50,447 nt of DNA from Acidobacteriota bacterium (GCA_046728075.1 JBKPDV010000066.1:1-50447), one strand, 5' to 3'; shown: positions 2,455 to 45,347, counted from the stretch's first letter. Notes: a model not told the origin generated them from the letters alone. Made by a program: numbers and translations.

Positions 2455-2532
2455 GTTCAAAGTTCAAAGTTCAAGGTTCAAGGTCATCACGGGCCTCAAC
2501 ATTGAACTTTGAACCTTGAAGCTTGAACTTGG
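2455..2532. repeat. Inverted heptad-array hairpin, unit GTTCAAR
   Basis: Left arm: GTTCAAA GTTCAAA GTTCAAG GTTCAAG (2455..2482). 15-nt loop. Right arm: ATTGAAC TTTGAAC CTTGAAG CTTGAAC (2501..2528). The right arm ends one base before the TAA of the mltD-like gene (2533..2535, minus strand). Confidence 0.9.
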
Positions 2533-4170
2533 TTACGGCTTGGCCGGAATGGTGAGCTTGTCGCCGGGACGAATCTGGGCCGGCGATCCGAGGCTGTTGG
2601 CCGTCATCAGGATCGCCACCGTCGTGCCGTGCTTGAGCGCGATCCGGTACAGCGTATCGCCGCCCCGGACGCGGTAGGTCTTTTTCTCCGGCGAAGGTCT
2701 GTTCGTCCGATCCGCGGCCGCCACGACTTTGCCGGCCTTCTTCTTCGGCTTTTTGCCGGTGGCGATCTGGACCTTCTCCGGCTTCGGAACCAGAATCACC
2801 CGTCCGCGCGGCAGGCGGGCCTTGGGCTCCACGGAGTTGAGCTCGGCTAAGACGGCCACCGGAACGTGGAAGCGGCGGGCGATCACGGCGAGCGTCTCGC
2901 CGCGTCGAGCCGCGTGCCGCCGGTACGAGGGAGCGATGGCGGTCGGAGCGGCCGCATAAGCGGCGAGCACGGCCTCGCGCGTTCCCATAGGCACCTTCAG
3001 CTCATAGCCCTCCGCATCGCGCGGGGTCACGTCCCCGGTCAGCTCCGGATTCAGGCGCTGGAGCTCCTCCAGGGGCGCATTTTGCCCGTCGGCGAGGTTC
3101 TTCAAACGGACGGGGCGCGTCAACTCGACCGTTTCGTACTCGAGGGGCTTTTCATACTCCACGTCGAAGCCGTAATGGGTCGGGTTCTTGGCGATCAACG
3201 TCGCCGCGATCACCGCCGGCACGTAGCTGATCGTCTGCGCCTTCAAGGCTCCCGGGGAGGCCGCCAGCTGCCAGAAGTCGGAAAATCCCGTGCGGGCCAT
3301 CGCCTTGAGGACCTTTCCCTCTCCCGCGTTGTACGCGGCGAGCGCCAGGTACCAATCGTGGAAGAGCAGGTTCAAATACTTCAGGTGTTTGGCGGCCGCG
3401 CGCGTCGCTTTCTCCGGGTCGCTGCGCTGGTCCACCACCGCGTTGGCGGTCAGTCCGTACTGCCGACCGGTTCGGAGCATGAATTGCCAGATTCCGTGGG
3501 CGGCCTTGTTGGAGCGCGCGCGAGGAAGAAACGAGGATTCGATCAGGGCCACTTGGGCGAGATCCGCCGGCACCCCTTCCTCGCGGAAGATCCGGTGGAT
3601 CATCGGAACGTAGCGGCCGGAGCGGGCAAGGCCGCGCCCGATCACGTCGTGCAGGTCGTTCTGGAAGACGGCGAGGATCCGCAGCACCGACTCATTCGCA
3701 ACGATGGGGATGTCGTAGGTCACGCCGGCGGTGTCGGTGGCGACGGCTGTCGCGGCCCGGGAGATCTCCTCGGGACTGGACACGGGCGCCTCGATCTGGC
3801 GCAGCTCCGGCGCGATACGGTCGGCGGCCGCCTCGTCCACCGGGGCCGCCAGGGCTTCGTAGCGCAGGATGGCCTCGAAAAGGTCTTCAGAAAAGTCGCG
3901 CAAGCGAGGATCGGATGGCGGGGCAGCGCCGACAGGACGCAGGGCATCGATGGCGCGCCCGAAGGCGTCGGCAGCGCAGGCTCCGTCTCCCGAGAGGGCG
4001 GCCTCGCGCCCCACATCGAACGCGCGGCTCGCAGCTTCCATCGCCGCGACTTCCGGCGAAGGCGCGGGCGGCGAAGCCTTGCGCGCCGGCGAGGAAGCGC
4101 ATCCGGCCAGTGCGAGCGCCGATGCGAGGAGCGCGTACTCCTTCGCCCGGGCACGGATCTCTTGAAGCAT
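2533..4170 (-). CDS. Membrane-bound lytic murein transglycosylase D-like lipoprotein (SLT domain plus two C-terminal LysM domains)
   Basis: SLT motifs ESSFLPRARSNKAAHGIWQFM and AAYNAGEGKV. LysM-like YRVRGGDTLYRIALKHGTTVAILMTANSL. I prefer the ATG at 4170 (MLQEIRARAKEYALLASALALAGC, lipobox LAGC) over the track start at 4248. Confidence 0.85.
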   Translation of the reverse strand: MLQEIRARAKEYALLASALALAGCASSPARKASPPAPSPEVAAMEAASRAFDVGREAALSGDGACAADAFGRAIDALRPVGAAPPSDPRLRDFSEDLFEAILRYEALAAPVDEAAADRIAPELRQIEAPVSSPEEISRAATAVATDTAGVTYDIPIVANESVLRILAVFQNDLHDVIGRGLARSGRYVPMIHRIFREEGVPADLAQVALIESSFLPRARSNKAAHGIWQFMLRTGRQYGLTANAVVDQRSDPEKATRAAAKHLKYLNLLFHDWYLALAAYNAGEGKVLKAMARTGFSDFWQLAASPGALKAQTISYVPAVIAATLIAKNPTHYGFDVEYEKPLEYETVELTRPVRLKNLADGQNAPLEELQRLNPELTGDVTPRDAEGYELKVPMGTREAVLAAYAAAPTAIAPSYRRHAARRGETLAVIARRFHVPVAVLAELNSVEPKARLPRGRVILVPKPEKVQIATGKKPKKKAGKVVAAADRTNRPSPEKKTYRVRGGDTLYRIALKHGTTVAILMTANSLGSPAQIRPGDKLTIPAKP

Positions 4171-4321
4171 CTGTACGGAAAGGTTAGCCGCCTCGAGAGC
4201 GCAAGGCAAAGGGTTTCTGGGTCCGACGATGTCTACCGGGGAGGACAACGGATGGACCGGACCCGGTCCGGGGGAAGAAACCTTCTATATCAAAATTGAC
4301 ATAACGCTTCCTCAACGTCCG

Positions 4322-4357
4322 GCTGACAGCTGATCGCTAACAGCTGACAGCTCTCAG
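4322..4357. repeat. Single heptad array, unit GCTGACA (minus-strand reading CTGTCAG)
   Basis: GCTGACA GCTGATC GCTAACA GCTGACA GCTCTCA. In gene sense it reads TAG-CTGAGAG-CTGTCAG-CTGTTAG-CGATCAG-CTGTCAG, starting immediately after the mglA-like stop. Confidence 0.88.
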
Positions 4358-5695: not shown

Positions 5696-5759
5696 GGACG
5701 ATTATCTGCTCGCGCACACGAGCGCGTGGAAGAATTCTACCATCGCTCCCGCCGTAAGT

Positions 5760-5782: not shown

Positions 5783-5816
5783 GAGGATGGGACGCGGGGA
5801 AAGCAGAATCAAGCCC

Positions 5817-6686: not shown

Positions 6687-6698
6687 ACGCCCCCGATC

Positions 6699-6795
6699 CC
6701 CAAGTCTGAAGTCTGACATGAGGATGGAGGTGGCAGGATCTTCCCCATTGCCCGCGTCCGACGCCCTCAGACCTCCGACGTCCTCAGTCCTTGGT
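6699..6795. repeat. Degenerate inverted heptad element, unit AGTCTGA
   Basis: CCAAGTCTGAAGTCTGAC ... CCTCAGACCTCCGACGTCCTCAGTCCTTGG. The ends CCAAG/CTTGG and the TCTGA/TCAGA units are complementary. It lies in the divergent region between the DUF2520 gene and hrcA. Confidence 0.5.
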
Positions 6796-10393: not shown

Positions 10394-10397
10394 AGGA

Positions 10398-10480
10398 GTC
10401 GACAGTCGACAGTCGACAGTCGACAGCCGGGGAGAACTTCTGAAATTCAAACTGTGGACTGATGACTGTGGACTGTTGAC
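10398..10480. repeat. Inverted heptad-array hairpin, unit GTCGACA
   Basis: Left arm: GTCGACA x4 then GCCGG. 21-nt loop. Right arm: TGTGGAC TGATGAC TGTGGAC TGTTGAC. It fills the dnaK-dnaJ spacer and ends at TTG 10481. Confidence 0.9.
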
Positions 10481-10483
10481 TTG

Positions 10484-11584
10484 ATGATGAACGAAAAGCG
10501 TGATTATTACGAGATACTGAGTGTCAGGCGCGATGTTGGCGCTGCCGAGCTGAAATCCGCTTATCGCAAGCTCGCTCTCCAGCACCACCCGGACCGTAAC
10601 CCCAACAACCCGGAAGCGGCCGAACGGTTCAAGGAGGCGTCCGAGGCCTACGCCGTGCTTTCGGATCCGGACAAGCGCGCGCGCTACGATCAATTCGGAC
10701 ACGCCGGAGTCGGGGCCTCGGCCGGGAGCGGGTTTTCTGGATTTGATTTCGGCGACTTCTCCGATCTGTTCGGGGAGATCTTCGGCTTTGGCGGGGGAGG
10801 CCGCGGGCCGCGCGCGCCCGCCGGAAGCGATCTCGTCTATCGAATGGAGATCTCCTTCCGCGACGCCGCCTTCGGGTTGGAGGCTCCCTTGCTCATCTCC
10901 CGGATGGAGCCATGCGCGGAGTGCGGCGGATCCGGCGCCGAGAAGGGAACGCGTCCCAAGACCTGCAGCGCGTGCGGCGGCCGGGGACGCGAGCGCCTCT
11001 CGCAGGGTTTCCTGATGATCACGCGCCCGTGCAGCCGCTGCCGGGGAGAAGGAGTGACGATCGAGAAACTCTGCGGCGCCTGCCGCGGGCAGGGACGCCA
11101 GCGGGCGTCGCAGTCGCTGACGATCCGCATCCCCGCCGGAGTCGAAACGGGCTCGCGCCTCCGACTGTCGGGAGAGGGGGACGCCGGGAGCAACGGTAGC
11201 CCGGCCGGAGACCTCTACGTCGTCCTGACGGTGCGGCCCGATGAAGTCTTCGAACGCGAAGAGGATCACGTGATCCTCAAGCTCACGCTTCCGTATCCCA
11301 CGCTCGTTCTGGGCGGAGAGGTCACGGTGCCGACGCTCGAGGGGACCGAGAAGATCTCCATCGCGGCGGGCACGCCCGCCGGCTCGGAGGTCCGCCTTCG
11401 CGGCAAGGGCTTCGGCCGGATCGGGCAACGAGGGCGCGGGGATCTGATCGTGCGCGTCGGTGTCGACGTGCCGCAGGCCCCGTCGGCAAAAGAGAAAGAG
11501 CTGCTGCGGCAGTACGCCGAGCTCGTGGGCGCGCCGGTCGGGAAGCCGAGCATGGCCGAGAAGGCGAAGAAGATTTTCAAGTGA
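10484..11584 (+). CDS. dnaJ: Molecular chaperone DnaJ
   Basis: J domain (DYYEILSV...[14 protein letters not shown]), G/F region, and four CxxCxGxG zinc motifs. TTG 10481, ATG 10484 and ATG 10487 are all possible starts. Confidence 0.95.
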
Positions 11585-11668
11585 GCTGTCAGCTGTCAGC
11601 TTTCAGCTATCAGCCAGAATGGCACGACGTTTCCGGGAGCTGAGAGCTGAGAGCTGAAAGCTGAGAGC
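11585..11668. repeat. Inverted heptad-array hairpin, unit GCTNTCA
   Basis: TGA-GCTGTCA GCTGTCA GCTTTCA GCTATCA GCC, 21-nt loop, then GAGC TGAGAGC TGAGAGC TGAAAGC TGAGAGC-TTG. It spans exactly from the dnaJ stop to the prmA start. Confidence 0.92.
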
Positions 11669-12496
11669 TTGCCCCGTCTCAAGTACTCCCGCCTCTCGAT
11701 TCCCCGCAAGGCCAAGGACGATGCCGTCGTCGGTCTGCTGTGGCTCCACGAGACGCTCGGGTTCGCCCAGGAAGGGCGGGACCTCGTGGCCTGTTTCCGC
11801 GACGCGGACCGGGCGCGGAACGCCCAGCGGGAGCTCGAGACTCGAGGCGTGCGCTGCGAGCTCGTCACGGACATTCCCGAAGAAGACCCTCTCGAGGCGT
11901 TTCGCCTCGCCTCGCGGCCCTTCGCTGTGGGACAGCGGTTCTGGATCGATCCGGGCGAGCCTTCCGACTCACAACCTCCGTCCGACCGGATCGCTCTGCG
12001 GCTTCCCGCCTCCCGCGCCTTCGGGACCGGCGGCCATGAATCGACGCGGCTGGTCCTGCTCGCTCTGGAGGAGGAGCCGCCCGTCGACCTCGACGTTCTG
12101 GACGTCGGCACGGGCTCGGGCGTCCTGGCGCTGGCGGCCGCCGCGCTCGCGGCTCGCCGGTCGGTCGGGCTCGACACGGACTTAGACGCCGTCTGCGTTG
12201 CGGAAGAGAACCGCCGGCGGCATTCCTTCGGACAGACCGTCCGCTTCCTCGCGGCCGGAATCGAAGCCGTGGCGGGGCAGTTTCACCTCGTGCTCGCCAA
12301 CCTGCTTCCTGAGGAATTCCTCCCGATCCGCCGGCGCGTGCTCGCCCGCGTGGCCCCTCAGGGGCGCGCGATTCTCTCGGGAATCTCGCGCGATCGGGAG
12401 GACGAGGTGCTCGACCGCGTCCGGTCCGAGCGCTGGCGGCTGGCGGGACGGCGCAGCGAGAACGAATGGACGAGCCTGACTCTCGAGCGCGCCTGA
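11669..12496 (+). CDS. prmA: Ribosomal protein L11 methyltransferase PrmA-like
   Basis: FGTGGHESTRLVL, DVLDVGTGSGVLALAAA. Conserved dnaJ-prmA-rsmE order. TTG start; there is an in-frame TGA at 11648. Confidence 0.85.
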   Translation: MPRLKYSRLSIPRKAKDDAVVGLLWLHETLGFAQEGRDLVACFRDADRARNAQRELETRGVRCELVTDIPEEDPLEAFRLASRPFAVGQRFWIDPGEPSDSQPPSDRIALRLPASRAFGTGGHESTRLVLLALEEEPPVDLDVLDVGTGSGVLALAAAALAARRSVGLDTDLDAVCVAEENRRRHSFGQTVRFLAAGIEAVAGQFHLVLANLLPEEFLPIRRRVLARVAPQGRAILSGISRDREDEVLDRVRSERWRLAGRRSENEWTSLTLERA

Positions 12497-13203
12497 TCGT
12501 CGAGCGCTGCCCGAACCGCCAGGGCGAGACCGAGCTCTCGCGGGGCGAAGTCGCCCACGCCCGGGCGCGACGACTCCAGCGCGGTGATCCCGTCGTGCTG
12601 ATCGACGGGACGGGAACGGAGGCGCGCGGCACGTTGCTGCGGCTCTCCCGCGACGCCGCAGCCGTTTTCGTGGAAGAGATTCGCCACGGGCCGGATTCCC
12701 GAGAACGCATCGCGCTCTTCGTCGCGGGATTGAAGCGCGAGCGGCTCTCGTGGATCGCGGAAAAGGCCACCGAGCTCGGGGCCACCGCCCTGACCGTCGT
12801 CTCGACGGACCGCACCCAGCGCTTCCGCGCCACTCCCGAATTGTCGCAGCGGCTCACACGCGTCGCACAGGAGGCCGCCAAACAGTGTGGAAGCGCCCGG
12901 TGGCCCGCCATCTCCGGCTTCCGCGATTTGTCAGACATCCTTTCGGAAGAGCGGGACGCCACACGTCTGATCCTCGACCCGAAGGCGCCTCCCTTTCCCT
13001 CTTCGCTCGAGGCCCCGCTCGCCCTCCTGATCGGCCCGGAAGGGGGCTGGACGGAGAAGGAACGCGCGGCCGCCGGGGAGAAGGGATGGATCGCCGCCTC
13101 CCTGCCCGCCGGCCTGCTCCGCGCCGAGACCGCCGCGATTGCGGCGCTCGTCCTGGCGCGAGCCGCGCTCGAGCGCAGCGCCGGCGAAAGGCGAAAGGCG
13201 TAA
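12466..13203 (+). CDS. rsmE: 16S rRNA (uracil1498-N3)-methyltransferase RsmE
   Basis: RsmE length and motifs (LFVAGLKRERLSWIAEKATELGATAL, LLIGPEGGWTEKE). The last 6 codons and the TAA stop lie inside a heptad array. Confidence 0.85.
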   Translation: MDEPDSRARLIVERCPNRQGETELSRGEVAHARARRLQRGDPVVLIDGTGTEARGTLLRLSRDAAAVFVEEIRHGPDSRERIALFVAGLKRERLSWIAEKATELGATALTVVSTDRTQRFRATPELSQRLTRVAQEAAKQCGSARWPAISGFRDLSDILSEERDATRLILDPKAPPFPSSLEAPLALLIGPEGGWTEKERAAAGEKGWIAASLPAGLLRAETAAIAALVLARAALERSAGERRKA

Positions 13204-13265
13204 GGCGAAAGGCGATAGCTTTCCTTTCTCCACGCCCTTCGCCCTTCGCCGTTCGCCATTCGCCC
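13183..13265. repeat. Inverted heptad-array hairpin, unit GGCGAAN
   Basis: GGCGAAA GGCGAAA GGCGTAA GGCGAAA GGCGATA, loop, then CTTCGCC CTTCGCC GTTCGCC ATTCGCC. The third unit carries the rsmE TAA stop. Confidence 0.9.
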
Positions 13266-13273
13266 GTCGTACG

Positions 13274-15585: not shown

Positions 15586-15621
15586 GCGGGCGCTCGGCGC
15601 TCGGCCTTGGGCGCTAGGCGG
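15586..15621. repeat. Single heptad array, unit GCGCTCG
   Basis: GCGCTCG GCGCTCG GCCTTGG GCGCTAG directly after the pilT TGA. I found no complementary arm. It contains the TAG that interrupts the recX frame. Confidence 0.75.
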
Positions 15622-18813: not shown

Positions 18814-18880
18814 GCCATAGGACGCAGGAAGAATCGCGACCAGCTACGTCCTACCAAACACCTCTTCCAGCCGCGCAAGC

Positions 18881-19635: not shown

Positions 19636-21171
19636 ATGTCGCGAGTTCCGGGAAGCCTTCCTCCTTTGGACCGCGGAATCTTCTTCGTCCACATTTCCCG
19701 CGCGCGCAAGCATCTGGCCGAGGAACGGTTTGATCTCGCGCGAAAGGAGCTCGAGCTCGCGGATCTGGCCAAGCCCAACGACGAAGAAGTCTTGAACCTC
19801 CTGTCGGTCGTCGAGTTCAAGCGGGGCTACTACAACGAGGCGGCGCAAGCCGCCAGGCAGCTCCTCGCCGCCAACACACACTCGGCGGTCCTCCATTGCA
19901 ACCTGGGGTTGATCCTGTTCAAGGCCGGTGTGCTCGGGGAGGCGGAGCAGGAGCTGCGCCGGGCGATCGAGTTGAAGCCCGATCACGCCCGAAGTCATCT
20001 CTACCTAGGTTTGCTCTATCGGATGCGCGGAAAACTGGGGCTCGCGGTCGAGCATCTGAAATTCGCGGGAGCGCAGCGCGTGGTCGGCGAAATCGAAGAG
20101 AGCCTGCGGCGCTCGCCTCGAGAGTACCCGGGTCGAGCTCAAGCGACCGCGCCCACGACTCCGCGCCTCGCCTCTCCGCGTCCTGTTCCCCTACCCGTGG
20201 AGCCTGCGCCCGCTGTCGCGGAACCTCCGGTCGCCGCGGAACCTCCGGTCGCCGTTGCTCCGCCCGCCGAACCGGAAAAACCGGTGGTGATCACCGCCCC
20301 CCAGCCCGTTGTGGATGCCGAGGAGACGAATCCCAGCTTTCGCCCCGCCGACAGGCCGGCGCCATCGGCCCCGGACGAAATCACGGAACGGGTCCATGTC
20401 TCGCCCCTGCCATCTCCGCCCGTTCCCGTGGCGTCTCCGGTGACGGAGCCGGGCTTGCCTCCGGGAGCGCCTCTCGACGCCACTCTCTCGCGCGAAACGG
20501 CGCCCGACCCGCGGCCCGGATCTTCCCCCTGGGATACGGGGGGCCGTCCTCTCTTCCACGTCCGGCCCGACGGAGGTCTCGAGGTGGCGTCGCGCGGGGT
20601 CGTTTTCGTGCGCAAGGGCTCGGTCGTCTGGTACAGCGGAAAAATACGATTCGCCGCCGAGCCCTCCTTCCGCGGAACCCGCCTGGAAAAGATTCTGCGG
20701 GCCGACGGCCGGGGATACCTGTTCGTCAACGACCCCGGTCGCGCGGCCTTTCGCCGCGATCTCGCCGGGCAATCCCTGTATCTGGAGGGGAGCCGTCTGC
20801 TCGCGCTCGATCACGGCCTCTCCTTCCGCCTGGAGCCGATTCATGATTTTCGAATGAATCGTCGGGTGGACATCCTGAAGATCCAGGGGCGCGGCAGCGT
20901 GGTCCTGTCCGTCGGAGGCCCTCTGCTGGCCCACGAGGTGACGGCGGAGTTTCCACTGAACGTGTCCTCGCGCGATCTGGTCGCCTGGACAGGCGACGTC
21001 GTTCCGTCAGTGCTCGAGGATCGTTTCCTGGAAGAGGTCATGATGCCCGACGTGGGCTCGGCCCCGAAAATTCGATTCGAGGGAATCGGAACGGTCTTGA
21101 CCGAGCCCCCGCGTCCGCGCCGGCGGGCGAGCGATCTGGCGAGGCCGTCGGACGCCGACCGGCGTTCGTAG
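19636..21171 (+). CDS. TPR domain - Pro-rich linker - AIM24 (DUF124)-like C-terminal domain protein
   Basis: N-terminal TPR-like helices (EAEQELRRAIELKPDHARSHLYLGLLY), the linker PVPLPVEPAPAVAEPPVAAEPPVAVAPP, and a C-terminal beta-rich region resembling AIM24 (ILRADGRGYLFVNDPG..., ILKIQGRGSVVLSVGGPL). Confidence 0.7.
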   Translation: MSRVPGSLPPLDRGIFFVHISRARKHLAEERFDLARKELELADLAKPNDEEVLNLLSVVEFKRGYYNEAAQAARQLLAANTHSAVLHCNLGLILFKAGVLGEAEQELRRAIELKPDHARSHLYLGLLYRMRGKLGLAVEHLKFAGAQRVVGEIEESLRRSPREYPGRAQATAPTTPRLASPRPVPLPVEPAPAVAEPPVAAEPPVAVAPPAEPEKPVVITAPQPVVDAEETNPSFRPADRPAPSAPDEITERVHVSPLPSPPVPVASPVTEPGLPPGAPLDATLSRETAPDPRPGSSPWDTGGRPLFHVRPDGGLEVASRGVVFVRKGSVVWYSGKIRFAAEPSFRGTRLEKILRADGRGYLFVNDPGRAAFRRDLAGQSLYLEGSRLLALDHGLSFRLEPIHDFRMNRRVDILKIQGRGSVVLSVGGPLLAHEVTAEFPLNVSSRDLVAWTGDVVPSVLEDRFLEEVMMPDVGSAPKIRFEGIGTVLTEPPRPRRRASDLARPSDADRRS

Positions 21172-21208
21172 CTGTCAGCTGTCAGCTGTCAGCTATCAGC
21201 TCTCAGCC
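21171..21208. repeat. Single heptad array, unit GCTNTCA
   Basis: TA-GCTGTCA GCTGTCA GCTGTCA GCTATCA GCTCTCA GCC. The G of the TAG stop of the TPR-AIM24 gene is the first base of the array. Confidence 0.9.
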
Positions 21209-21269
21209 AACCAGGTCTCGTCGAACCCTCGATTTCGTAACATTGTTATGCTCCACGACGGTCTTCTTC

Positions 21270-21297
21270 AGCTGTAAGCTGTAAGCTACAAGCTACA
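21270..21297. repeat. Single heptad array, unit GCTGTAA/GCTACAA
   Basis: GCTGTAA GCTGTAA GCTACAA GCTACA. It overlaps the TAG (21293..21295, minus strand) of the phosphohexomutase gene. It has the same strand polarity as 21171..21208, so the two are not complementary arms. Confidence 0.8.
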
Positions 21298-22762
21298 TCT
21301 CTGCTCGCGGTCGGACGCCGCGCTGGCCCGCAAAGTCGTTGAGTCGCTTCACCGCGGAGTCGAGGATCCGCTCGACCTTTTCGGCGTCCTCGTGCTCGCA
21401 GTAGAGGCGGATCAGCGGCTCGGTGCCGGAGAGGCGGTGGAGGAGCCAGCCGTGCGGGCCGAAGAGATACTTCACGCCGTCCGTGTCGAGCTCGCCGGTG
21501 ACCGTTTCCCCCGCGACGGAGGAGGGGACATCCCTGCGGACTTGTTCGAGAAAGCCGCGGACCAGATCGACGGAAAGATAAGCGTCGCGCCGGGCATAGG
21601 CAAACTCGCCGAACTCCGCGGCGAGCTCGGCGAGAGCCGCTTCGAGATTCCGCCCCTCCATCGCCAGGCTCTCGATCAGGAGCAGCGCGTTGAAGACCCC
21701 GTCGCGCTCCGGCAGATGAAAAGCGAAGGCGTATCCGCCGCTTTCTTCTCCTCCGGCGACGGCCGTCCCTGAATTCATGAGCTCGGCAACGTGCTTGAAA
21801 CCGATCGGCGTTTCGACGAGCGGCGCTCCGAGCTTCTGCGCCACCCGGTCGATCAAGAGCGACGTCGAAAAGGTCTTCGCGATGCCGCCGGAGAGCCCGC
21901 GGCGGCGAAACGCATGGAGGAGCAGGAGCGCCAGGACGCGATGGGGGGAGACGAACTGGCCGCTCCCGTCGAGAACGCCCAGCCGATCGGCGTCACCGTC
22001 CCAGGCCACGCCCAGGTCGCACCGTTCTTCGCGAATTCGCGCCGAAGCAGCGGAGAGATTCGCGGCGATCGGTTCGGGATGGACGCCTCCGAAGAGGACG
22101 TCTCTCTCGGCGCGAAATAGAACGACCCGGGTCCGTCCCGTGTCGAGAATGTCGCCCAGCATCGAGCCGGCGGCGCCGTGCATCGCATCGGCGAGCACGG
22201 TCAGGCTGGCCGCCCGGATCGCCTCGAGGTCGACGAGTGCGGCGAGGCCTTCCCGATACGGGCGCAGGAGGTCGACGGTCTCGACAACGGCGCGTCCGTG
22301 GGCGGTGCCGCGGCCGTCCCGGCTGGCTTTTTCTACTTGGGCGTAGAGCTCTGGCGGAGCGCTTCCGCCGAAATGCGCCTTGATCTTGAAACCGTTGTAC
22401 GGGGCCGGGTTGTGACTGGCGGTGATCGCGATTCCGCCGGCAAACCCGCCGCGGCGCACGTGGAACGACACGGCGGGAGTCGGCACGGGGCGGTCCGTCA
22501 GGAGGACTCCGATGCCGGCGGCCGCGAGCTCGTCGGCGGCGGAGCGGGCGAATTCCGGCGAGAAGAACCGCGTGTCGTGCCCGACGACGGTTCGCGACAC
22601 GTCTCCGGCGTTCCAGCTCGGGTAGAGGTGGCCGACGGCGGCGGCGAGGCGCCGGATCGCCGGAAACGTACAGCCCTCGGCGATAACGCCGCGCCAGCCG
22701 TCGGTGCCCAGGGGGAAGGAAGAATCGGGTGATCGGGTGATCGAGTGATCGGGCGAGCTCAA
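21293..22762 (-). CDS. Alpha-D-phosphohexomutase (phosphoglucomutase/phosphomannomutase family)
   Basis: FPLGTDGWRG, active-site loop ITASHNPAPYNGFK, metal loop WDGDADR, GGEESGG. TTG start shares TTGA with the upstream stop. Codons 3-13 are encoded by an octamer repeat. Confidence 0.9.
   Translation of the reverse strand: MSSPDHSITRSPDSSFPLGTDGWRGVIAEGCTFPAIRRLAAAVGHLYPSWNAGDVSRTVVGHDTRFFSPEFARSAADELAAAGIGVLLTDRPVPTPAVSFHVRRGGFAGGIAITASHNPAPYNGFKIKAHFGGSAPPELYAQVEKASRDGRGTAHGRAVVETVDLLRPYREGLAALVDLEAIRAASLTVLADAMHGAAGSMLGDILDTGRTRVVLFRAERDVLFGGVHPEPIAANLSAASARIREERCDLGVAWDGDADRLGVLDGSGQFVSPHRVLALLLLHAFRRRGLSGGIAKTFSTSLLIDRVAQKLGAPLVETPIGFKHVAELMNSGTAVAGGEESGGYAFAFHLPERDGVFNALLLIESLAMEGRNLEAALAELAAEFGEFAYARRDAYLSVDLVRGFLEQVRRDVPSSVAGETVTGELDTDGVKYLFGPHGWLLHRLSGTEPLIRLYCEHEDAEKVERILDSAVKRLNDFAGQRGVRPRAEM
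22724..22755. repeat. Octamer tandem array, unit ATCGGGTG
   Basis: ATCGGGTG ATCGGGTG ATCGAGTG ATCGGGCG. On the minus strand it encodes SPDHSITRSPD at the N-terminus of the phosphohexomutase ORF. Confidence 0.85.
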
Positions 22763-24171: not shown

Positions 24172-24187
24172 GCGGGTATTATGAAGA

Positions 24188-24284
24188 GTCGACAGTCGAC
24201 AGTCGACAGCCGACAGTCGGAGAATCGCACTCAACGTGATCGAACTGCAAGAAACTGTAGACTGTTGACTGTAGGCTGTCGACT
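24188..24284. repeat. Inverted heptad-array hairpin, unit GTCGACA
   Basis: GTCGACA x3, GCCGACA, GTCGG, 34-nt loop, then TGTAGAC TGTTGAC TGTAGGC TGTCGAC. It lies between the divergent deacetylase and pgsA genes and ends 3 nt before the pgsA TTG. Confidence 0.9.
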
Positions 24285-24878: not shown

Positions 24879-24954
24879 GAGCGAGGGGCAGAGTCGGGGA
24901 GAGGGCGAGTGGGCGAACAAAAGGATCACCCCCTCACCCCCTCTCCCACTCACC
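24879..24954. repeat. Degenerate G-rich/C-rich inverted element between convergent pgsA and trmB
   Basis: GAGCGAGGGGCAGAGTCGGGGAGAGGGCGAGTGGGCG, loop AACAAAAGGAT, then CACCCCCTCACCCCCTCTCCCACTCACC. Roughly 7-nt GAGNGGG periodicity and imperfect complementarity. Confidence 0.55.
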
Positions 24955-25582: not shown

Positions 25583-25652
25583 AGTTCAAAGTTCAAAGTT
25601 AGAGCCATCAGGTCGTCTCACCCTTGAACGTTGAACGTTGAACGTTGAACCC
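25570..25652. repeat. Inverted heptad-array hairpin, unit GTTCAAN
   Basis: GTTCAAT GTTCAAA x3, 22-nt loop, then CTTGAAC GTTGAAC x3. The right arm ends at the icd-like stop (25653), and the left arm overlaps the annotated trmB TTG start. Confidence 0.9.
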
Positions 25653-26693
25653 TCACAGCCTTTCCGCCACCGCCCGCGCAAACGCCTTCGTGCCGGCGGT
25701 GCCGCCGAGGTCGGGGGTCTTGATTCCCGTGGCCAGAGTGGCCGTCAGGGCCTTGTCGATCCGCTCGGCGTCCCGCAGCAGTTCCATGTGACGCAACATC
25801 AGGATCGCCGAAAGGAGAAGCGCGGTCGGATTGGCCTTCTCCTGGCCGGCGATGTCCGGAGCCGTTCCGTGGACCGCTTCGAAGATGGCCATGGTCTTTC
25901 CCAGATTGGCTCCGGGAACCACACCCAGGCCGCCGACCAGACCGGCGGCCAGGTCGGAGAGGATGTCGCCGTACAGGTTCTCCATCAGCAGCACGTCGAA
26001 GATCTCCGGGTTCATCACCAGCCGCATGCACGTCGCGTCCACGATCCGATCGTCGGCTGTGATTTCGGGATAGTCCTGCGCGACCTTCCGAAAGCAGTCG
26101 AGGAAGAGACCGTCGGAGAGCTTCATGATGTTGGCCTTGTGAACGGCCGTCACGCGCCGGCGGCCGTTGGCCGTCGCATAGTCGAACGCGAACCGCGCGA
26201 TCCGAGTCGAGGCGGCCTCGGTGATGATCTTCAGGGACTCGACGACTCCGGGCACGACGATGTGCTCGAGTCCGCTGTAGAGGTCCTCGGTGTTCTCCCG
26301 GACGACAACAATGTCTACATTGTTAAAGCGGCTCTCCACGCCGGGCAGGTTCTTTACGGGCCGGAGGTTGGCATACAGGTCGAGGGTCTTGCGCAGGCGC
26401 ACGTTGATCGAGGCGAAGCCCTTGCCGATCGGCGTGCCCACGGGTCCCTTCAGAGCGACCTTGTTCTTGCGGATCGATTCGAGCACCCGGTCGGGCAGGG
26501 GATCGCCCTCGCTCTGCTCGGCCGCGCGGCCGACGACCTGTTCCTCGAAAACGAGCGGCGTTCCCGCGGCCTCGAGGATCGAGACCACGGCGTCGGAGAC
26601 TTCCGGCCCGATGCCGTCTCCTCGAATAAGTGTGACGGCCCGTTTTTCCAGGTTCACTCCTCCCGCAGCTCGATTCTCGTGCTCGAGAAGCAA
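25653..26693 (-). CDS. NAD-type isocitrate dehydrogenase (isocitrate/isopropylmalate dehydrogenase family)
   Basis: LIRGDGIGPEV, LRKTLDLYANLRPV, VVVRENTEDLYSGLEH, PGANLG. Closely resembles IDH3-type enzymes. Alternative GTG start at 26657. Confidence 0.9.
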   Translation of the reverse strand: MLLEHENRAAGGVNLEKRAVTLIRGDGIGPEVSDAVVSILEAAGTPLVFEEQVVGRAAEQSEGDPLPDRVLESIRKNKVALKGPVGTPIGKGFASINVRLRKTLDLYANLRPVKNLPGVESRFNNVDIVVVRENTEDLYSGLEHIVVPGVVESLKIITEAASTRIARFAFDYATANGRRRVTAVHKANIMKLSDGLFLDCFRKVAQDYPEITADDRIVDATCMRLVMNPEIFDVLLMENLYGDILSDLAAGLVGGLGVVPGANLGKTMAIFEAVHGTAPDIAGQEKANPTALLLSAILMLRHMELLRDAERIDKALTATLATGIKTPDLGGTAGTKAFARAVAERL

Positions 26694-26778
26694 GCTATCA
26701 GCTTTCAGCTAAGAGCTCTCAACCATACGGTCGAACCGCTCGTGCTCGGCTGAAAGCTGCAAGCTGCGAGCTGAAAGC
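26694..26778. repeat. Inverted heptad-array hairpin, unit GCTNTCA
   Basis: GCTATCA GCTTTCA GCTAAGA GCTCTCA, 26-nt loop, then GGC TGAAAGC TGCAAGC TGCGAGC TGAAAGC-TA. It spans from the CNNM-family stop (TAG 26778..26780) to the icd-like TTG at 26693. Confidence 0.9.
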
Positions 26779-28037
26779 TATTTCTTCTCCGGCAGAATCA
26801 TCAGTACCTTCTGGATCGCCGTCGGCGTGGCCTCCTCCACGACAAAGTCCGCCCGGCGGCCGCGCCACCGTTCGCCTTTGCGGGGGATTCGGCCGAACCG
26901 CATCAGGAGATGACCCGCGATCGTCTCCGCCTCCTCGCGGGGCAGCGAGATTCCGAACTGCTCCTCGAGGTCGTCCAATCGCAGGGTGCCGTCGAGGAGG
27001 AAACGGCGCTCCCCGGCCGGCTGGAAACCGGGGCCCTCCTCCTCGTCGTACTCGTCTTCGATCGGACCGAGCAGCTCCTCGATCGCGTCCTCGATCGTGA
27101 CGAGGCCGGCCGTTCCGCCGAACTCGTCCACGACGACGGCCATGTGGGTGCGCCTTCGCCGCATTTCGCTGAAGAGCGCCTCGGCTCTCTGGGATTCCGG
27201 CACGAGGTAGGGAGGATCGACCCACTGAGCCAGCCGGAAGGCCGCTTCCTCCGCGTCGTTCAAGGCGAAGAGGTCCTTGGCATGCAGGATTCCAATGATG
27301 TTATCGAGAGTCTCCCGGTAAACCGGCAGGCGCGACAGCTTGTGCTCCCGCAAAATTCGGCCGACTTCCGCGAACGAAGCGGTATCCGGCAGCGCAATGA
27401 TCTTCGTGCGCGGCAGCATGATGTCCCGAACGGTCCGGTCGCCGAATTCGAGCACCTTATGGAGGAGGCGCCGCTCCTCGCCGTGAATGATCCCTTCGTC
27501 GGCGCCGAGGTTGAAGACGCTCTTCATCTCCTCTTCGGTCAGGGACGGCTCCCGCTGCTTGACTCCGATCAGGCGAAGCGCCCGCGTGGTCACCTGGACG
27601 CAGAGTGTCGCGATCGGAGAGAGAACCTTCATCACGACCGCCATCGGCCGGGCCACCGCGCGCGAGATGGCAACCGGGGAAGCCGCTCCGATCGCCTTGG
27701 GAGTCATCTCGGCGAACACGAAGAGCGCGATCGTCGAGAAGAGGATCGCGGCCGGAACGCCGTAGGTCTCCCCCAGCCAGTCGGTCGCCAGCACCGTAGC
27801 GAGCGCCGAGGCCGCGCTCAAAAAGAGATTCTGGCCGATCAGGATTGTCGCGAGCAGCCGGGGCGTGTGCGCCTTCAGGTTGCGGATGATCGCGGCGCGA
27901 GGATCGCCGCTCTCCCGGAGCCGGGCCAGGTCGATGCGCCCGAGGGAAACCAGGGCGGTCTCCGAGCCCGCGAAGAACGCGGAGAGCAGCAGCGAAAGGA
28001 AGAGGAGGAACAGATAAACGAGAGTCTGAGCTTGCAT
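26778..28037 (-). CDS. Hemolysin/CNNM family membrane protein (DUF21 - CBS pair - CorC_HlyC)
   Basis: N-terminal DUF21 TM block (FFAGSETALVSL), a CBS pair, and C-terminal VVDEFGGTAGLVTIEDAIEELLG. Confidence 0.9.
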   Translation of the reverse strand: MQAQTLVYLFLLFLSLLLSAFFAGSETALVSLGRIDLARLRESGDPRAAIIRNLKAHTPRLLATILIGQNLFLSAASALATVLATDWLGETYGVPAAILFSTIALFVFAEMTPKAIGAASPVAISRAVARPMAVVMKVLSPIATLCVQVTTRALRLIGVKQREPSLTEEEMKSVFNLGADEGIIHGEERRLLHKVLEFGDRTVRDIMLPRTKIIALPDTASFAEVGRILREHKLSRLPVYRETLDNIIGILHAKDLFALNDAEEAAFRLAQWVDPPYLVPESQRAEALFSEMRRRRTHMAVVVDEFGGTAGLVTIEDAIEELLGPIEDEYDEEEGPGFQPAGERRFLLDGTLRLDDLEEQFGISLPREEAETIAGHLLMRFGRIPRKGERWRGRRADFVVEEATPTAIQKVLMILPEKK

Positions 28038-31364: not shown

Positions 31365-32588
31365 GTGCCAGGCCCCTATCCTCGCGCCGTGACCTCATCG
31401 AGCGACCAGGTCGGGGATCTCGCGGCGAAGATTCGGGCGGCCGTAGCCGAGACTGCCTCGGCCGCGCCGCCTCGCCCGACGTCCAGAAGTCCGAGCCCCG
31501 AGGAAGAGGCGGCGCAAGCCGCGCTCGCGCGAGCGGCCGCCCATGTGACCCCTTCGATTCCGGAGTCATCCCGCCTGGTGCTGGGGAAAAAAACAGTTCT
31601 TCGACTGCTCCGTTTTCTCTGGCGGGATCAGGGCGCGTTCAATGCCCTGTCCCTGCAGGCCGGGAGCGCTCTTCTGGCCGCTTTGTCGGCGCAGAGAGAG
31701 AACATCGAACGGCTTTCCTCGGAAGCCGGGCGCGTGCGCCGCGCTCTGGCCTCCCTTGAAACGGAAGTTGCGAAATGGAGCGCTTCGTGGCAACGCCGGG
31801 CCGCCATTCAGGACGCGCGCCTGGCGGAGCTCGAGAAGGCGCCTTCCGGCGGGGTGAGACCCGCCCCCGAGGTCGGTGCGGCGCCCGCCTCCGCGATTCC
31901 GCCAGGCGTCTACAGTCTGTTCGAAGAGAGATTTCGCGGCTCGCCCGAGGAGATCGCCAAACGGCAGCAGGGATACCTTCTCGATTTGAAGGAGATTCCA
32001 GGTCCTGTTCTGGACGTCGGGTGCGGCCGGGGCGAGCTCCTCCGGCTCCTTTCGGACAGCGGGATCGCCGCTTCGGGAGTCGAGGTCAATCCCATCGCCG
32101 TCGCGGAATGCCGGAAGAACGGGCTCGAGGTCGAGAAAGGAGACGCGATCGCGGCACTGGCCCGCCGTCCCGCGGGCAGCCTGGGCGCCGTCGTCGCCTT
32201 GCAGGTGGTGGAGCACTGGCCGCCGGAGACGATCTTCGTGTTCCTGCGCGAGGCGCGCCGGGCGCTGGCGCCCGGCGGAGTCCTGATCGCCGAGACGATC
32301 AACGTCGGCTCGATCTCGGCGTGGAAGGCCTTTTATCTGGATCCTTCCCACGTGAGGCCCGTGCCCGCGGAGACACTTGCCTTCCTGGCCGAAACGGCCG
32401 GGTTCGCGCAACCCAGAATCGAGTACCACGCCCCTCTGCCCGCTGCGGAGCGCCTCGAGGAGCGCTCGGAAAACGACGCGAAGCTAAACCGGCTGCTCTT
32501 CGCCGAGCAGGACTATGCGCTCGTCGCGCGCGTGCCGCAGGAAGAGTCCGAAAGGCGAGAGGCGGGAGGCGAAAGGCGGGAAGAGTGA
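31365..32588 (+). CDS. Class I SAM-dependent methyltransferase with N-terminal coiled-coil region
   Basis: VLDVGCGRGELLRLL (motif I), VVALQVVEHWP, LAPGGVLIAE. The C-terminal ERREAGGERREE is encoded by a heptad array. An alternative GTG start lies at 31389. Confidence 0.8.
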   Translation: MPGPYPRAVTSSSDQVGDLAAKIRAAVAETASAAPPRPTSRSPSPEEEAAQAALARAAAHVTPSIPESSRLVLGKKTVLRLLRFLWRDQGAFNALSLQAGSALLAALSAQRENIERLSSEAGRVRRALASLETEVAKWSASWQRRAAIQDARLAELEKAPSGGVRPAPEVGAAPASAIPPGVYSLFEERFRGSPEEIAKRQQGYLLDLKEIPGPVLDVGCGRGELLRLLSDSGIAASGVEVNPIAVAECRKNGLEVEKGDAIAALARRPAGSLGAVVALQVVEHWPPETIFVFLREARRALAPGGVLIAETINVGSISAWKAFYLDPSHVRPVPAETLAFLAETAGFAQPRIEYHAPLPAAERLEERSENDAKLNRLLFAEQDYALVARVPQEESERREAGGERREE

Positions 32589-32654
32589 TGCGAGTCACCG
32601 CGATACAAGCGACCGGGCAACCCGCCTACCGCCTGCCGCCTTCCGCCTACCGGC
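32550..32654. repeat. Inverted heptad-array hairpin, unit NNAGGCG
   Basis: AGGCG recurs at 32553, 32560, 32567 and 32574 (left arm, coding ERREAGGERREE plus TGA). CGCCT recurs at 32623, 32630, 32637 and 32644 (right arm). The right arm ends 1 nt before TTG 32656 of the GT4 gene. Confidence 0.88.
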
Positions 32655-35200: not shown

Positions 35201-35305
35201 GGACGGGGGGACGGGGGGACTGGGGGACGGGGAGGAAACGCTAATCGTTACGACGACGGTGGATTCGGGTTCGCCCCGTCCCCCCGTCCCCGTTTCTCCC
35301 CGTCC
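35201..35305. repeat. Inverted octamer-array hairpin, unit GGACGGGG
   Basis: GGACGGGG GGACGGGG GGACTGGG GGACGGGG, 41-nt loop, then CCCCGTCC CCCCGTCC CCGTTTCT CCCCGTCC. It lies between the lipoprotein gene stop and the GGDEF gene start. Confidence 0.88.
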
Positions 35306-37180: not shown

Positions 37181-37310
37181 GGCGAACGCCGGGAACGCCG
37201 GGAACGCAGCGAGAACGCCGGGAAGTGAAGTGTGAACTTCGAACTTCGTCCTTTACTTCACCCGATCCCGCTGCGTTCCCGTTGCGTTCCCGTTGCGTTC
37301 CCGCTGCGTT
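37181..37310. repeat. Long nested inverted repeat built from 9- and 11-nt units (AACGCCGGG / CCCGYTGCGTT) with an inner GAAGT/ACTTC hairpin
   Basis: The left arm starts right after the ffh TGA: GAACGCCGG x2, GAACGCAGC, GA, GAACGCCGG. Centre: GAAGTGAAGTGTGAACTTCGAACTTCGTCCTTTACTTCAC. Right arm: CCCGCTGCGTT CCCGTTGCGTT CCCGTTGCGTT CCCGCTGCGTT. Confidence 0.85.
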
Positions 37311-37885: not shown

Positions 37886-37919
37886 ATTTCGAAATTCGAA
37901 TTTCGGATTTCGAATTTTT
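37886..37919. repeat. AT-rich heptad array, unit ATTTCGA (self-complementary TTCGAA cores)
   Basis: ATTTCGA AATTCGA ATTTCGG ATTTCGA ATTTTT, followed directly by the rimM ATG at 37920. It lies between the KH-protein gene and rimM. Confidence 0.85.
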
Positions 37920-43181: not shown

Positions 43182-43252
43182 TGATTTGCGATTTGTGATT
43201 GGCGATTGACGGAGGCTCTCGAAATCACAAATCACAAATCACAAATCCGATC
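43182..43252. repeat. Inverted heptad-array hairpin, unit NGATTTG
   Basis: The left arm starts 1 nt after the TGA of the TPR gene: TGATTTG CGATTTG TGATTGG CGATTGA. Loop: CGGAGGCTCTC. Right arm: GAAATCA CAAATCA CAAATCA CAAATCC. Confidence 0.9.
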
Positions 43253-44278: not shown

Positions 44279-45285
44279 GCGAGCTGCTGCGGGTCGAAGA
44301 GCTGCGCAAGACTTATCCGGCCGGGGGAGGGATCTCACCCGGACGGAACGGAAGGATCCCTGCCCTGGACGGCGTTTCGTTTTCCATCGCGCCTGGAGAA
44401 ACGGTGGCCCTCGTCGGGGAATCCGGCAGCGGGAAGACGACGACCGGCCGTCTGCTGCTCCGCTTCGAACAGCCGGATTCCGGCCGAGTCTTCTTCGAAG
44501 GGGAGGACTGGCTCGCTCTGGAAGGTCCGTCGTTGCGCCGGCGGCGTCGGGACATCCAGATAGTCTTCCAGGACCCGCAGACATCGCTGAATCCGAGGAT
44601 GAGGGTGGGGGACCAGATCGCAGAGCCCTTGCGTGTCCAAAAGCTCCTTGCCCGCCGGGAGCTCTCCGCGAAAGTCTCTCTCCTGCTCGCATCCGTGGGA
44701 TTGCCGGCAGAAGCTGGAGAGCGCTTCCCGTCGGAGTTCTCCGGAGGACAGAGGCAGCGGGTGGCCATCGCCCGGGCGCTGGCGACCGGCCCGAAGCTGC
44801 TGGTCTGCGACGAGCCGGTGTCGGCTCTGGACGTCTCCGTCGCGGCGCAGATCATCAACCTCTTGCTGGAGTTGCAGGAGAAGACCGGCCTTTCGCTCCT
44901 CTTTATTTCGCACGACCTTGCTGTCGTCGAGCGTCTGGCCGACCGCGTCCTGGTCTTGTACCGGGGCCGGATCGTCGAGGAGGGACCGACGGCGGCGATC
45001 GTCCGGCGCCCGCTGCATCCCTATACGGCCGCGTTGCTGTCCGCCGCACCGGATCCCAACCTCTCCTTCCGGCGATCTCGGATCGTGTTGGCGAGCGACA
45101 CGGCGCCCGCCCGATTGAGCGCGGGATGCGCCTTTCAGCCCCGCTGCCCCGTCGCGCGCCCCCGGTGCCTGCAGGAGGCGCCGCCGCTCGAGGAACTGGA
45201 GCCGGAGCGCCTCGCCTCCTGTTTCTTTCCGGGCGAACTGCCGGCCAGAACCGAAGGGCCCCCGGTCCCCCCGCTCGGGGGCTGA
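44275..45285 (+). CDS. ABC transporter ATP-binding protein, oligopeptide/dipeptide (OppF/DppF) type
   Basis: [46 protein letters not shown] 44275 shares GTGA with the upstream stop. Confidence 0.88.
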   Translation: MSELLRVEELRKTYPAGGGISPGRNGRIPALDGVSFSIAPGETVALVGESGSGKTTTGRLLLRFEQPDSGRVFFEGEDWLALEGPSLRRRRRDIQIVFQDPQTSLNPRMRVGDQIAEPLRVQKLLARRELSAKVSLLLASVGLPAEAGERFPSEFSGGQRQRVAIARALATGPKLLVCDEPVSALDVSVAAQIINLLLELQEKTGLSLLFISHDLAVVERLADRVLVLYRGRIVEEGPTAAIVRRPLHPYTAALLSAAPDPNLSFRRSRIVLASDTAPARLSAGCAFQPRCPVARPRCLQEAPPLEELEPERLASCFFPGELPARTEGPPVPPLGG

Positions 45286-45314
45286 AGAGCCGGAGCTCGC
45301 CTCCGGACTCCGGC

Positions 45315-45347
45315 TGTGGACTGTCGACTGTCGACTGTCGACTGACC
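45315..45347. repeat. Single heptad array, unit TGTCGAC (complement of GTCGACA), downstream of the OppF-like gene
   Basis: TGTGGAC TGTCGAC TGTCGAC TGTCGAC TGACC, preceded by CTCCGGACTCCGGC. This is complementary to the GCCGGAG that follows the array at 44237..44271. Confidence 0.85.

Follow-up and report, generated by a model that had tools for sequence, protein, structure and literature searches.

Introduction

Tandem arrays of short repeat units between genes are known from several bacteria, and the present analysis concerns such arrays, mostly of 7-nt units and often in complementary pairs, at the gene ends of a 50,447-nt stretch of DNA from an Acidobacteriota bacterium (GCA_046728075.1, JBKPDV010000066.1:1-50447), which is called the window below. 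The GGGAATC heptamers of Xanthomonas are intergenic, prefer four units and lie at most 50 bp from a stop codon or overlap it; their G-rich strand is the coding strand, they are rarer between divergent open reading frames (ORFs), and 70-75 inverted pairs per genome could form stem-loops (Rehm 2015, PMC4692102). In related species the junctions are conserved, and sequence and length vary extensively; G-quadruplexes were proposed for the GGGNATC heptamers of Xanthomonas and Nostoc, and no function was found (Rehm 2015, PMC4692102). Geobacter metallireducens carries paired opposite-strand sites at variable distance, for example between proB and proA. Their units are four tandem GTTGCTYN octamers (24 pairs), five tandem MTYCTGA heptamers (8 pairs) and TCTCCGTS[Y] at 21 locations, with three tandem repeats in at least one described site; the paired sites, absent from the sister species, were read as "global regulator binding sites" of the integration host factor (IHF)/HU type (Aklujkar 2009, PMC2700814). 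Direct heptamer arrays are known as the short tandemly repeated repetitive (STRR) sequences of cyanobacteria and as TAACTGA in Beggiatoaceae, with 169 direct sets vs one inverted (MacGregor 2015). The heptanucleotide is also the favoured unit of long simple sequence repeats (SSRs) in prokaryotes, with a bias of polymerase slippage (Mrazek 2007, as summarised in PMC4679880).

The elements of the window share with those of Xanthomonas the preference for four units, the anchoring at the stop codon, the position of the G-rich arm first, the rarity in divergent spacers and the conservation of junctions. They differ in that one G-rich unit family is used there, whereas at least 15 units occur per 50 kb here, most of them not G-rich; here pairs and not singles are the rule, and array-wide compensatory evolution of the arms is documented. 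The likeness to Geobacter lies in intergenic, opposite-strand pairs of four to five tandem 7-9-nt units, and one locus fetched for comparison (L042) even shares the GTTGCTNN octamer, whereas in Geobacter each genome has three or four fixed classes of unit, and an evolutionary analysis is found only here. The cyanobacterial and Beggiatoaceae arrays resemble the window elements in the 7-nt unit, in the intergenic position often beside start or stop codons and in the slippage proposed for them, but they are direct arrays of one or few units per genome and not complementary pairs. Repetitive extragenic palindromic (REP) sequences and bacterial interspersed mosaic elements (BIMEs) are numerous extragenic imperfect palindromes at gene 3' ends or between cistrons, for which mRNA stabilisation and transcription attenuation have been proposed; REPs have a genome-wide consensus, are mobilised by REP-associated tyrosine transposases (RAYTs) and are not tandem repeats. 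The window hairpins, too, form imperfect palindromes between cistrons and where genes end 3', but consist of tandem units without a genome-wide consensus.

We know of no function ever demonstrated for short-unit inverted repeat pairs at gene ends, and a literature search found no description of repeat hairpins in Acidobacteria or Thermoanaerobaculia. When compared with inverted heptanucleotide SSR pairs as a class, the elements have the tandem 7(-9)-nt units, the complementary partner, the stop adjacency and the junction conservation, and they lack the single or few unit families per genome. Owing to this diversity of units (75 in all, at least 15 in the window), the lineage presents a variant of the Xanthomonas and Geobacter type, and we read the architecture as one known before without a function, which appears here in an unusually pervasive, many-unit and extreme form. 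A preliminary description made from the sequence alone had taken the architecture to be lineage-specific; this part is given up, as it had already been described in Xanthomonas (PMC4692102) and G. metallireducens (PMC2700814).

Results

Short-unit arrays are frequent and mostly non-coding

The window has a G+C content of 66% and is 92% coding and 8% non-coding. Arrays were detected with Tandem Repeats Finder (TRF) and a separate period detector; the 82 TRF rows of the window, merged and filtered to units of 6-11 nt with at least 3.5 copies, gave 32 short-unit arrays, 25 of them with period 7. The period-7 arrays of at least 3.5 copies thus numbered 25 in the real window vs 0 in 20 second-order Markov shuffles of it. 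The arrays were mostly non-coding in 28 of 32 cases (binomial 3e-27), so that they are not equally frequent inside genes; three of the remaining four lie on ORF 3' ends, in the last codons, and one is an unrelated in-frame hexamer. Among the spacers of 40 nt or more in the window, 19 of 30 carry an array (16/22 co-directional, 2/4 convergent and 1/4 divergent).

The sample was widened to the window plus 92 fetched loci (labelled L001 and so on), 995 kb in all, where period 7 dominates with 139 arrays vs about 30 for period 6 or 8. Complementary array pairs number 13 in the window and 64 in the whole sample, and 75 distinct canonical units occur over all loci, at least 15 of them in the window, hence no sequence motif is shared. 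A few units recur, namely AGCTGTC in three TRF-called arrays, ACAGTCG in four and GTTCAAA in two. Contig ends lay inside arrays in 6 of 112 cases, an unconvincing signal of assembly breakage. The array phenomenon is real, pervasive and non-random.

All 12 pairs named in the preliminary description were recovered (2455, 10397, 11584, 13183, 14268, 24187, 25569, 26693, 32549, 35201, 37184 and 43183), and an additional 8-mer pair was found with arms at 24881/24926. Of its nine single arrays, those at 4322, 15589, 21170, 21270, 22724 (8-mer), 37886 and 45314 stood, whereas the one at 44237 is weak and the one at 30248 degenerate. The individual elements of the window are as follows.

2455..2531, - strand: paired; in gene sense GTTCAAR x4, a 16-nt loop and YTTGAAC x4; between the SLT/LysM stop (2533) and the ComM-like start (2394)
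4322..4357, - strand: single; GCTGACA x4.4 with a CAGCTG palindromic core, can self-fold; abuts the stop of gene 4358-5695
6702..6791, strand unassigned: degenerate remains of arrays in the divergent DUF2520/hrcA spacer (6690-6893)
10397..10487, + strand: paired; AGTCGAC x4.3 / GTGGACT-type x4.3; fills the space from the dnaK stop (10393) to the dnaJ start (10484)
11584..11669, + strand: paired; AGCTGTC x4.4 / GAGCTGA x4.7; reaches from the stop codon of dnaJ to the start of prmA
13183..13269, + strand: paired; GGCGAAA x4.7 / CGCCCTT x5.3; the first arm is the rsmE end with the stop in GGCGTAA
14268..14345, + strand: paired; GGTCTAA x4 / TTAGACC x4.6; stop of the class-IV aminotransferase in the first unit
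15586..15620, + strand: single; GGCGCTC x4.6, directly 3' of the pilT stop; L009 has GGCGTAA x4 there
18814..18860, + strand: mini-hairpin of one to two units, TAGGACG / CGTCCTA, after alaS; L013 has four units
21170..21297, strand unassigned: two direct arrays, AGCTGTC x5.4 and AGCTGTA x2.6, each abutting the stop of one convergent gene
22724..22753, - strand: single 8-mer; ATCGGGTG x3.8
24187..24284, + strand: paired; AGTCGAC x4.7 / ACTGTAG x4.4; divergent spacer, ending 3 nt before the predicted CDP-alcohol phosphatidyltransferase start
24881..24954, strand unassigned: paired 8-mer; GCGAGTGG / TCACCCCC; fills the gap between two convergent stops
25569..25650, - strand: paired; in gene sense GTTCAAC x4, a loop and TTTGAAC x4.4; between the isocitrate/isopropylmalate dehydrogenase stop (25653) and the trmB-like start
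26693..26779, - strand: paired; in gene sense AGCTTTC-type x4.4, a loop and GAxAGCT x3; from the CNNM/CorC stop to the dehydrogenase start
30248: degenerate array below the TRF threshold, inside the 3' end of ORF 29192-30319
32549..32652, + strand: paired; GGCGRRA-type / CCGCCTA x4.4; first arm inside methyltransferase gene 31365-32588, at its 3' end
35201..35305, - strand: paired 8-mer; GGACGGGG x4 / CCCCGTCC; between a canonical terminator (~35325-35352) and the GGDEF start (35177)
37184..37310, + strand: paired, longer 9/11-mer units; GAACGCCGG x4.3 / TCCCGCTGCGT x4.1; located 3' of the ffh stop (37180), ahead of rpsP; fold z = -8
37886..37917, + strand: single, self-complementary; ATTTCGA x4.6 (TTCGAA core); fills the KH-protein to rimM spacer
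43183..43247, + strand: paired; GATTTGC x3.6 / AAATCAC x3.7; 1 nt after the TPR stop and 15 nt before the ABC ATPase ATG (43263)
44237-44265: weak GTCGACA array (63% matches) inside the end (last 40 nt) of the ORF preceding 44275-45285
45314..45344, + strand: single; CTGTCGA x4.4; lies 28 nt beyond the stop codon that ends gene 44275-45285

In L013, the spacer 2213-2433, which is orthologous to 6690-6893 of the window, holds two tandem full GGACGTA/TACGTCC hairpin modules, and the junction orthologous to 21170..21297 a compact CAGTTCT/AACTGAx hairpin. The stretch at 22724 is intergenic, since its ortholog in L013 is a full CGGTTCA hairpin.

Anatomy and position relative to genes

Over the whole sample, the median array has 4.4 units (interquartile range 3.9-4.6) and a length of 31 nt, and very few arrays exceed five units; the median loop is 23 nt and the median whole element 86 nt. 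The gap from arm to arm is 9-43 nt in the window, and loops range over 10-60 nt overall. The consensus units of the two arms are reverse complements with 0-2 mismatches in the 64 pairs, and in 31 of them the consensus distance is one, that is, a one-base mismatch in every unit.

In most of the 47 co-directional cases, and in every convergent one, no more than about 15 nt separate the first arm from the upstream stop, in agreement with the constant architecture on or near the stop codon that had been proposed. The stop codon often falls within the first arm, as GTC-TAA in GGTCTAA (14268), as GGCGTAA at the rsmE stop (13201) and, in L009, as the TGA contained in the unit GACTGAG. The second arm ends either 0-15 nt or 45-75 nt upstream of the next start, and the longer distance occurs where a promoter intervenes, for example the sigma-70-like TTGACA-18-GATACT at 13274-13303, directly after hairpin 13183. 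The earlier statement that arrays end at the next start is therefore correct where no promoter intervenes (0-15 nt) and incorrect otherwise (45-75 nt upstream). At dnaK-dnaJ, dnaJ-prmA, KH-rimM, 26693 and 32549 the stem reaches from the stop codon to 0-15 nt before the next start, and between convergent genes the element occupies the whole stop-to-stop gap.

The stop-proximal arm contains more G than C in 32 of 40 cases (17 vs 5 when counted by distinct unit, about p = 0.02), with the directions of transcription and replication confounded here. The arms showed no purine asymmetry (22 vs 18). Stop triplets were not enriched in the units (first arm, 8 vs 8.3 expected; second arm, 10 vs 7.7 expected), and a role as three-frame stop barrier was rejected on this ground. 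Single arrays with a 6-nt palindromic core, which allows self-folding, are 4 of 5 in the window; over all loci the core is found in 10 of 44 singles vs 7 of 94 paired arms, a weak difference with 11% expected at random.

It was also noticed that RsmE receives its last 7-14 residues and its stop from the first arm (13183-13203; likewise at the rsmE 3' ends of L008, L009, L010 and L014), and that the C-terminal tail of methyltransferase 31365-32588 is supplied in the same way (32549-32588). As a hairpin arm encodes the C-terminus, the protein tails differ between strains with the unit. In L013, which is without the rsmE hairpin, the rsmE stop is a TGA inside the -35 box.

Folding and strand symmetry

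The pairs fold into stems of 25-34 bp with free energies of -30 to -77 kcal/mol. The fold z lay between -5 and -8 for RNA and near -5 for DNA, none of 200 dinucleotide shuffles being as good, which confirms the imperfect hairpins foreseen in the preliminary description. The typical stem is a series of 6-bp helices separated by one mismatch per unit. Of 42 non-redundant co-directional elements, 18 had the stabler fold in sense and 24 in antisense (Wilcoxon p = 0.82), which gives no sign of selection on the sense transcript in particular. The G-U pairs in the same elements were 111 in sense vs 101 in antisense; selection on the sense transcript should tolerate G-U and not A-C, and in the absence of such a bias the complementarity appears to be kept symmetrically.

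No T-run was found after the second arm. A terminator consensus scan of 1-20000 returned 8 sites vs 13.6 expected, none at the elements. With no T-run, a median loop of 23 nt and no consensus site at the elements, the class of intrinsic (Rho-independent) terminators was rejected. The Shine-Dalgarno motif is absent at 8 of 8 starts that abut a hairpin, and at dnaJ in the window, L013 and L001 alike, but this is uninformative for reinitiation because about half of all window genes are without the motif.

Junction conservation and concerted change in relatives

The relatives are Thermoanaerobaculia-like Acidobacteriota from independent metagenomes. PilT is identical or near-identical in several Joint Genome Institute (JGI) soil contigs, L013 shares about 94% identity with the window along 21 kb, and L001, a Thermoanaerobaculia metagenome-assembled genome with a 75% identical DnaJ, is the nearest labelled genome. 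The same junctions are occupied in these independent assemblies, with a backbone 80-94% identical, and the alignments (blastn for L013) break exactly at the elements. L001 shares the architecture, including the dnaK-dnaJ junction, and because its units are shared with the window clade at three junctions, the elements are old. The elements are inherited vertically at fixed junctions.

The junctions were compared between the window, L008-L014 and L001. At ilvE-pilT, the unit is GGTCTAA in the window, L010, L012 and L001, AGTGACG in L008 and L013, and GACTGAG in L009, and the arms are complementary in every genome compared. At rsmE-ilvE, it is GGCGAAA in the window, GGCGGAA in L010, CGGGAAA in L009, L014 and L001, and GGGACTC in L008, and L013 has no hairpin there. 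The dnaK-dnaJ unit is GTCGACA in the window vs GTCTAAA in L013 and L001; these align in register, with GTC.A.. invariant every seven columns and two positions altered in all four units. At dnaJ-prmA the units are CTGTCAG/GAGCTGA in the window and L008 vs TTxTCAG/xAACTGA in L013, and RNAalifold found four compensatory changes from C-G to U-A pairs (columns 12/79, 19/72, 26/65 and 33/58), which are one unit position in four consecutive units, exactly seven columns apart. Copy number is equal among the window, L012 and L010 though the bases differ. Each arm is homogenised, with unit substitutions spread array-wide, and the two arms co-evolve, complementarity persisting while the unit sequence drifts.

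Pairs that retain their unit have arms conserved like the flanking genes, and at the distance of L001 the arms score 0.73-0.79 vs 0.46-0.57 for the loops, a comparison that is biased because the pairs were picked for sharing the unit. In relatives without an element, the ilvE-pilT spacer contains the stop codon, some 10 nt and a promoter-like motif that is conserved, with no replacement hairpin; such relatives simply have a shorter spacer, hence the element, which adds about 85 nt, can be dispensed with there.

The arms of element 24187 are identical in the window and L013. The divergent spacer 24079-24287 that includes this hairpin is about 99% identical to L013 19738-19978, the backbone being about 93% identical, and this near-identity suggests either strong constraint or a recent exchange. 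Separately, in L011 (2100-2700) an insertion of about 600 nt splits the pilT-recX GGCGCTC array.

Distribution beyond the window clade

Arrays are dense in L001 and the window clade, and occur patchily among more distant PilT relatives. Pairs are present in L040, L045/46, L035, L051, L058, L066 and L022, and 8-mer units are preferred in L036, L038 and L042; many loci of equal G+C content among the 92 fetched have no arrays. In L042, paired octamer arrays AGTTGCTG / CAGCAACT were seen at 12424-12554 and 20016-20094, with the class-1 unit GTTGCTYN of G. metallireducens. L007, from candidate division WWE3 (49.5% G+C), contains several single period-7 arrays (AATTTTC, AAATCCC and CCACCAC) at 1138-18354, thus heptamer arrays recur well outside the window lineage.

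Repeat classes that do not fit

The view that the elements are not of REP, MITE (miniature inverted-repeat transposable element), Correia or CRISPR organisation was upheld, the features that define REP, MITE and CRISPR being missing. Identity with REP, REPIN (a REP-derived doublet) or BIME was rejected, as a 20-40-nt palindrome consensus with GTAG/CGTC head does not occur and units and loops differ by locus; a RAYT (TnpA-REP) gene was not found in the 50-kb window. MITE identity was rejected because the loops of same-unit elements are unrelated and the rsmE-ilvE junction, which differs by presence or absence, shows no target-site duplication. CRISPR identity fails on the contiguous 7-mers with one loop per element, in place of 24-48-nt repeats with unique spacers. 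A phase-variable contingency SSR was rejected as well, the arrays lying 3' of genes with equal copy number in the window, L012 and L010.

Neighbouring genes and other features of the window

The window encodes the housekeeping genes hrcA-grpE-dnaK-dnaJ-prmA-rsmE, a class-IV aminotransferase, pilT, recX and alaS, and further ffh-rpsP-KH-rimM-trmD-rplS-rnhB and ABC transporters. Transposase, reverse transcriptase and RAYT genes were not found among the window proteins, an Rfam scan of the window gave 0 matches at the gathering threshold, and a tRNA scan of it was empty. Look-ups by exact protein gave no match for the dehydrogenase and no DNA record for DnaJ. Canonical intrinsic terminators, with a G+C-rich stem followed by a T-run, lie at 35325-35352 (- strand) and ~48795-48830; as they coexist with the heptamer hairpins, the classical type has not been lost in the lineage. 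A promoter-like motif upstream of pilT (window 14349-14385, CTTCCAAT-N15-GGCGTAAnCT) is kept at the equivalent position in L015, L017, L018, L024 and L030, that is, in lineages with and without the hairpin. The rimM-trmD spacer has a REP-like imperfect palindrome without tandem units at 38440-38560 (CTGTCATCCCGAGGAGCGCAGCGACGAGGGATC ... GATCCCTCGCCTCCGGCTCGGGATGACAG), which we take to resemble a repeat widespread in soil bacteria; no exact copies of it were found in the 92 fetched loci.

Discussion

The elements are, with high confidence (about 0.9), inverted pairs of 7-nt and sometimes 8-11-nt SSRs, with four to five units per arm, situated in dispensable DNA that begins at the stop codon. 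For their origin and maintenance we lean towards slippage combined with arm-to-arm correction or weak selection for pairing (about 0.55). Replication slippage, biased to 7-nt units, would expand and homogenise each arm, and complementarity would be restored either by intrastrand template switching between the arms, which is an established mechanism of quasipalindrome correction, or by weak selection for pairing. The arrays would grow until constrained by coding sequence on one side and, at the far end, by whichever promoter or start codon comes next, from which the stop-to-start appearance would result, and growing arrays could even supply a stop codon and a short C-terminal tail. The symmetry of sense and antisense strands fits such maintenance at the DNA level. 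When transcribed, an element would place a stem of 25-35 bp, made of 6-bp helices often with one mismatch per unit and without a U-tract, at the 3' end of the upstream cistron. A REP-like 3' stem-loop effect is conceivable there, and we put it forward tentatively: like REP or BIME it may slow 3'-to-5' decay, attenuate read-through partially or occlude a downstream start that it abuts. That the elements are strong terminators is unlikely, since they have no U-tracts and many of them are embedded in conserved operons (dnaK-dnaJ, ffh-rpsP and rpsP-KH-rimM).

Several observations weigh against this explanation. Pure mutational drive does not obviously account for the sharp peak at four to five units, for some 85 nt of additional DNA having been retained at most junctions ever since L001 split off, or for arms more conserved than loops at deep divergence, the last with its biased choice of pairs. 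About half of the pairs (31/64) keep one mismatch per unit, which indicates that correction from arm to arm is not efficient, and mirrored compensation unit by unit is weak (p = 0.04, mostly from 8-mer elements). The polarity with the G-rich arm first (32/40) is not given by a symmetric DNA process alone, and some elements lie in divergent spacers where there is no upstream cistron (24187; 6690-6893 and its L013 ortholog). The functional statements, finally, are what we infer from the sequence.

Alternatively, the elements could be RNA elements kept by selection on the transcript, as U-tract-less terminators, 3'-end protectors or cistron insulators, a possibility to which we give less than even odds. 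The stop-codon anchoring, the filled convergent gaps, the higher frequency in co-directional (16/22) than in divergent (1/4) spacers, the promoter directly after hairpin 13183 and the G-rich arm first in sense direction fit it, as do the compensatory changes at dnaJ-prmA, the occupancy of junctions conserved back to L001 and the lack of enrichment of canonical terminator-like sites in 1-20000 (8 vs 13.6 expected). It is opposed by the sense strand being preferred neither in stability nor in G-U pairs, by the missing U-tract and by loops of 10-60 nt, unlike those of optimised RNA hairpins; moreover, many elements lie within conserved operons, relatives without the element have no substitute hairpin at the junction, and canonical terminators are also present in the window (~35330 and ~48800). 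The broader notion of a general gene-boundary device, in which a selected stem of ~30 bp and four to five units is read irrespective of sequence by the expression machinery, seems to us rather doubtful, for example as the main U-tract-less terminator or 3'-end protector or as a stop-to-start handover of ribosomes, with slippage building and resizing the stems. Coupling from stop to start, where the stem lets a terminating ribosome reinitiate in a shunt-like manner or masks the start until the upstream gene is translated, is very unlikely. The five junctions named above where the stem spans from the stop to 0-15 nt before the start would suit it, and so would the absence of Shine-Dalgarno motifs at all eight abutting starts, with dnaJ lacking it in three genomes; but about half of the window genes are without the motif anyway, several abutting starts are unverified TTG calls, and about half of the elements end 45-75 nt before a start or face a convergent gene.

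Binding arrays for a protein, be it nucleoid-associated or regulatory of the IHF/HU type or a single-strand or RNA binder with a 7-nt step, or a DNA cruciform that absorbs supercoils, are improbable. They would account for unit number and step being constant whatever the sequence and for the symmetry of the two strands, and such hypotheses have already been proposed for the Geobacter paired sites and for the Beggiatoaceae TAACTGA repeats. Against them, 75 different units rule out sequence-specific recognition, so that the recognition array considered in the preliminary description is unlikely in that form, the window has no gene for a candidate protein linked to the elements, and the median loop of 23 nt disfavours extrusion of a cruciform from duplex DNA, long loops being kinetically unfavourable to it. 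Mobile elements of MITE or REP/REPIN type, with the transposase elsewhere in the genome, are largely refuted. The presence/absence difference at rsmE-ilvE (L013 without the hairpin) and the recurrence of units (AGCTGTC, ACAGTCG and GTTCAAA in 3, 4 and 2 arrays) could be read in their favour, yet same-unit elements have unrelated loops and flanks, target-site duplications and a genome-wide consensus are lacking, the window encodes no transposase, and orthologous elements change their unit in register and not by replacement. The in-register, array-wide change, the unrelated loops, the missing target duplications and the 75 units together argue against transposition of ready-made copies, and the initial opinion that units differ between loci, loops are unrelated and no single mobile element is involved was sound. 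G-quadruplexes, as read for the GGGNATC repeats of Xanthomonas and Nostoc with four units giving four G-tracts, hardly come into question; the preference for about four units is shared and a few units are G-rich (GGACGGGG at 35201 and GGCGAAA), but most units have no G-tract (GTTCAAA, AGCTGTC, GTCTAAA, ATTTCGA and GATTTGC) and show the 4-5-unit preference nevertheless, hence a quadruplex cannot explain it in this lineage.

Short-unit inverted pairs at gene ends are now seen in four phyla distant from one another, Pseudomonadota (Xanthomonas), Desulfuromonadota (Geobacter), Cyanobacteriota and Acidobacteriota. The present lineage is the clearest natural experiment so far, in which the 7-nt step, the four to five units, the complementarity and the stop anchor are the constants; since units differ by locus, sequence-dependent explanations such as a G-quadruplex or a sequence-specific regulator do not fit here. 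Concerted evolution on both hairpin arms can be seen directly in the compensatory changes, which are in register and extend through whole arrays. The elements make up most of the intergenic DNA, give proteins strain-specific C-terminal tails and stops, and are the break points of alignments between otherwise 94%-identical genomes. If the notion of a gene-boundary device were true, the heptamer arrays of Xanthomonas, Geobacter and cyanobacteria would share that function, and if a function exists at all, it would concern the punctuation of operons in a large uncultured clade of soil bacteria.

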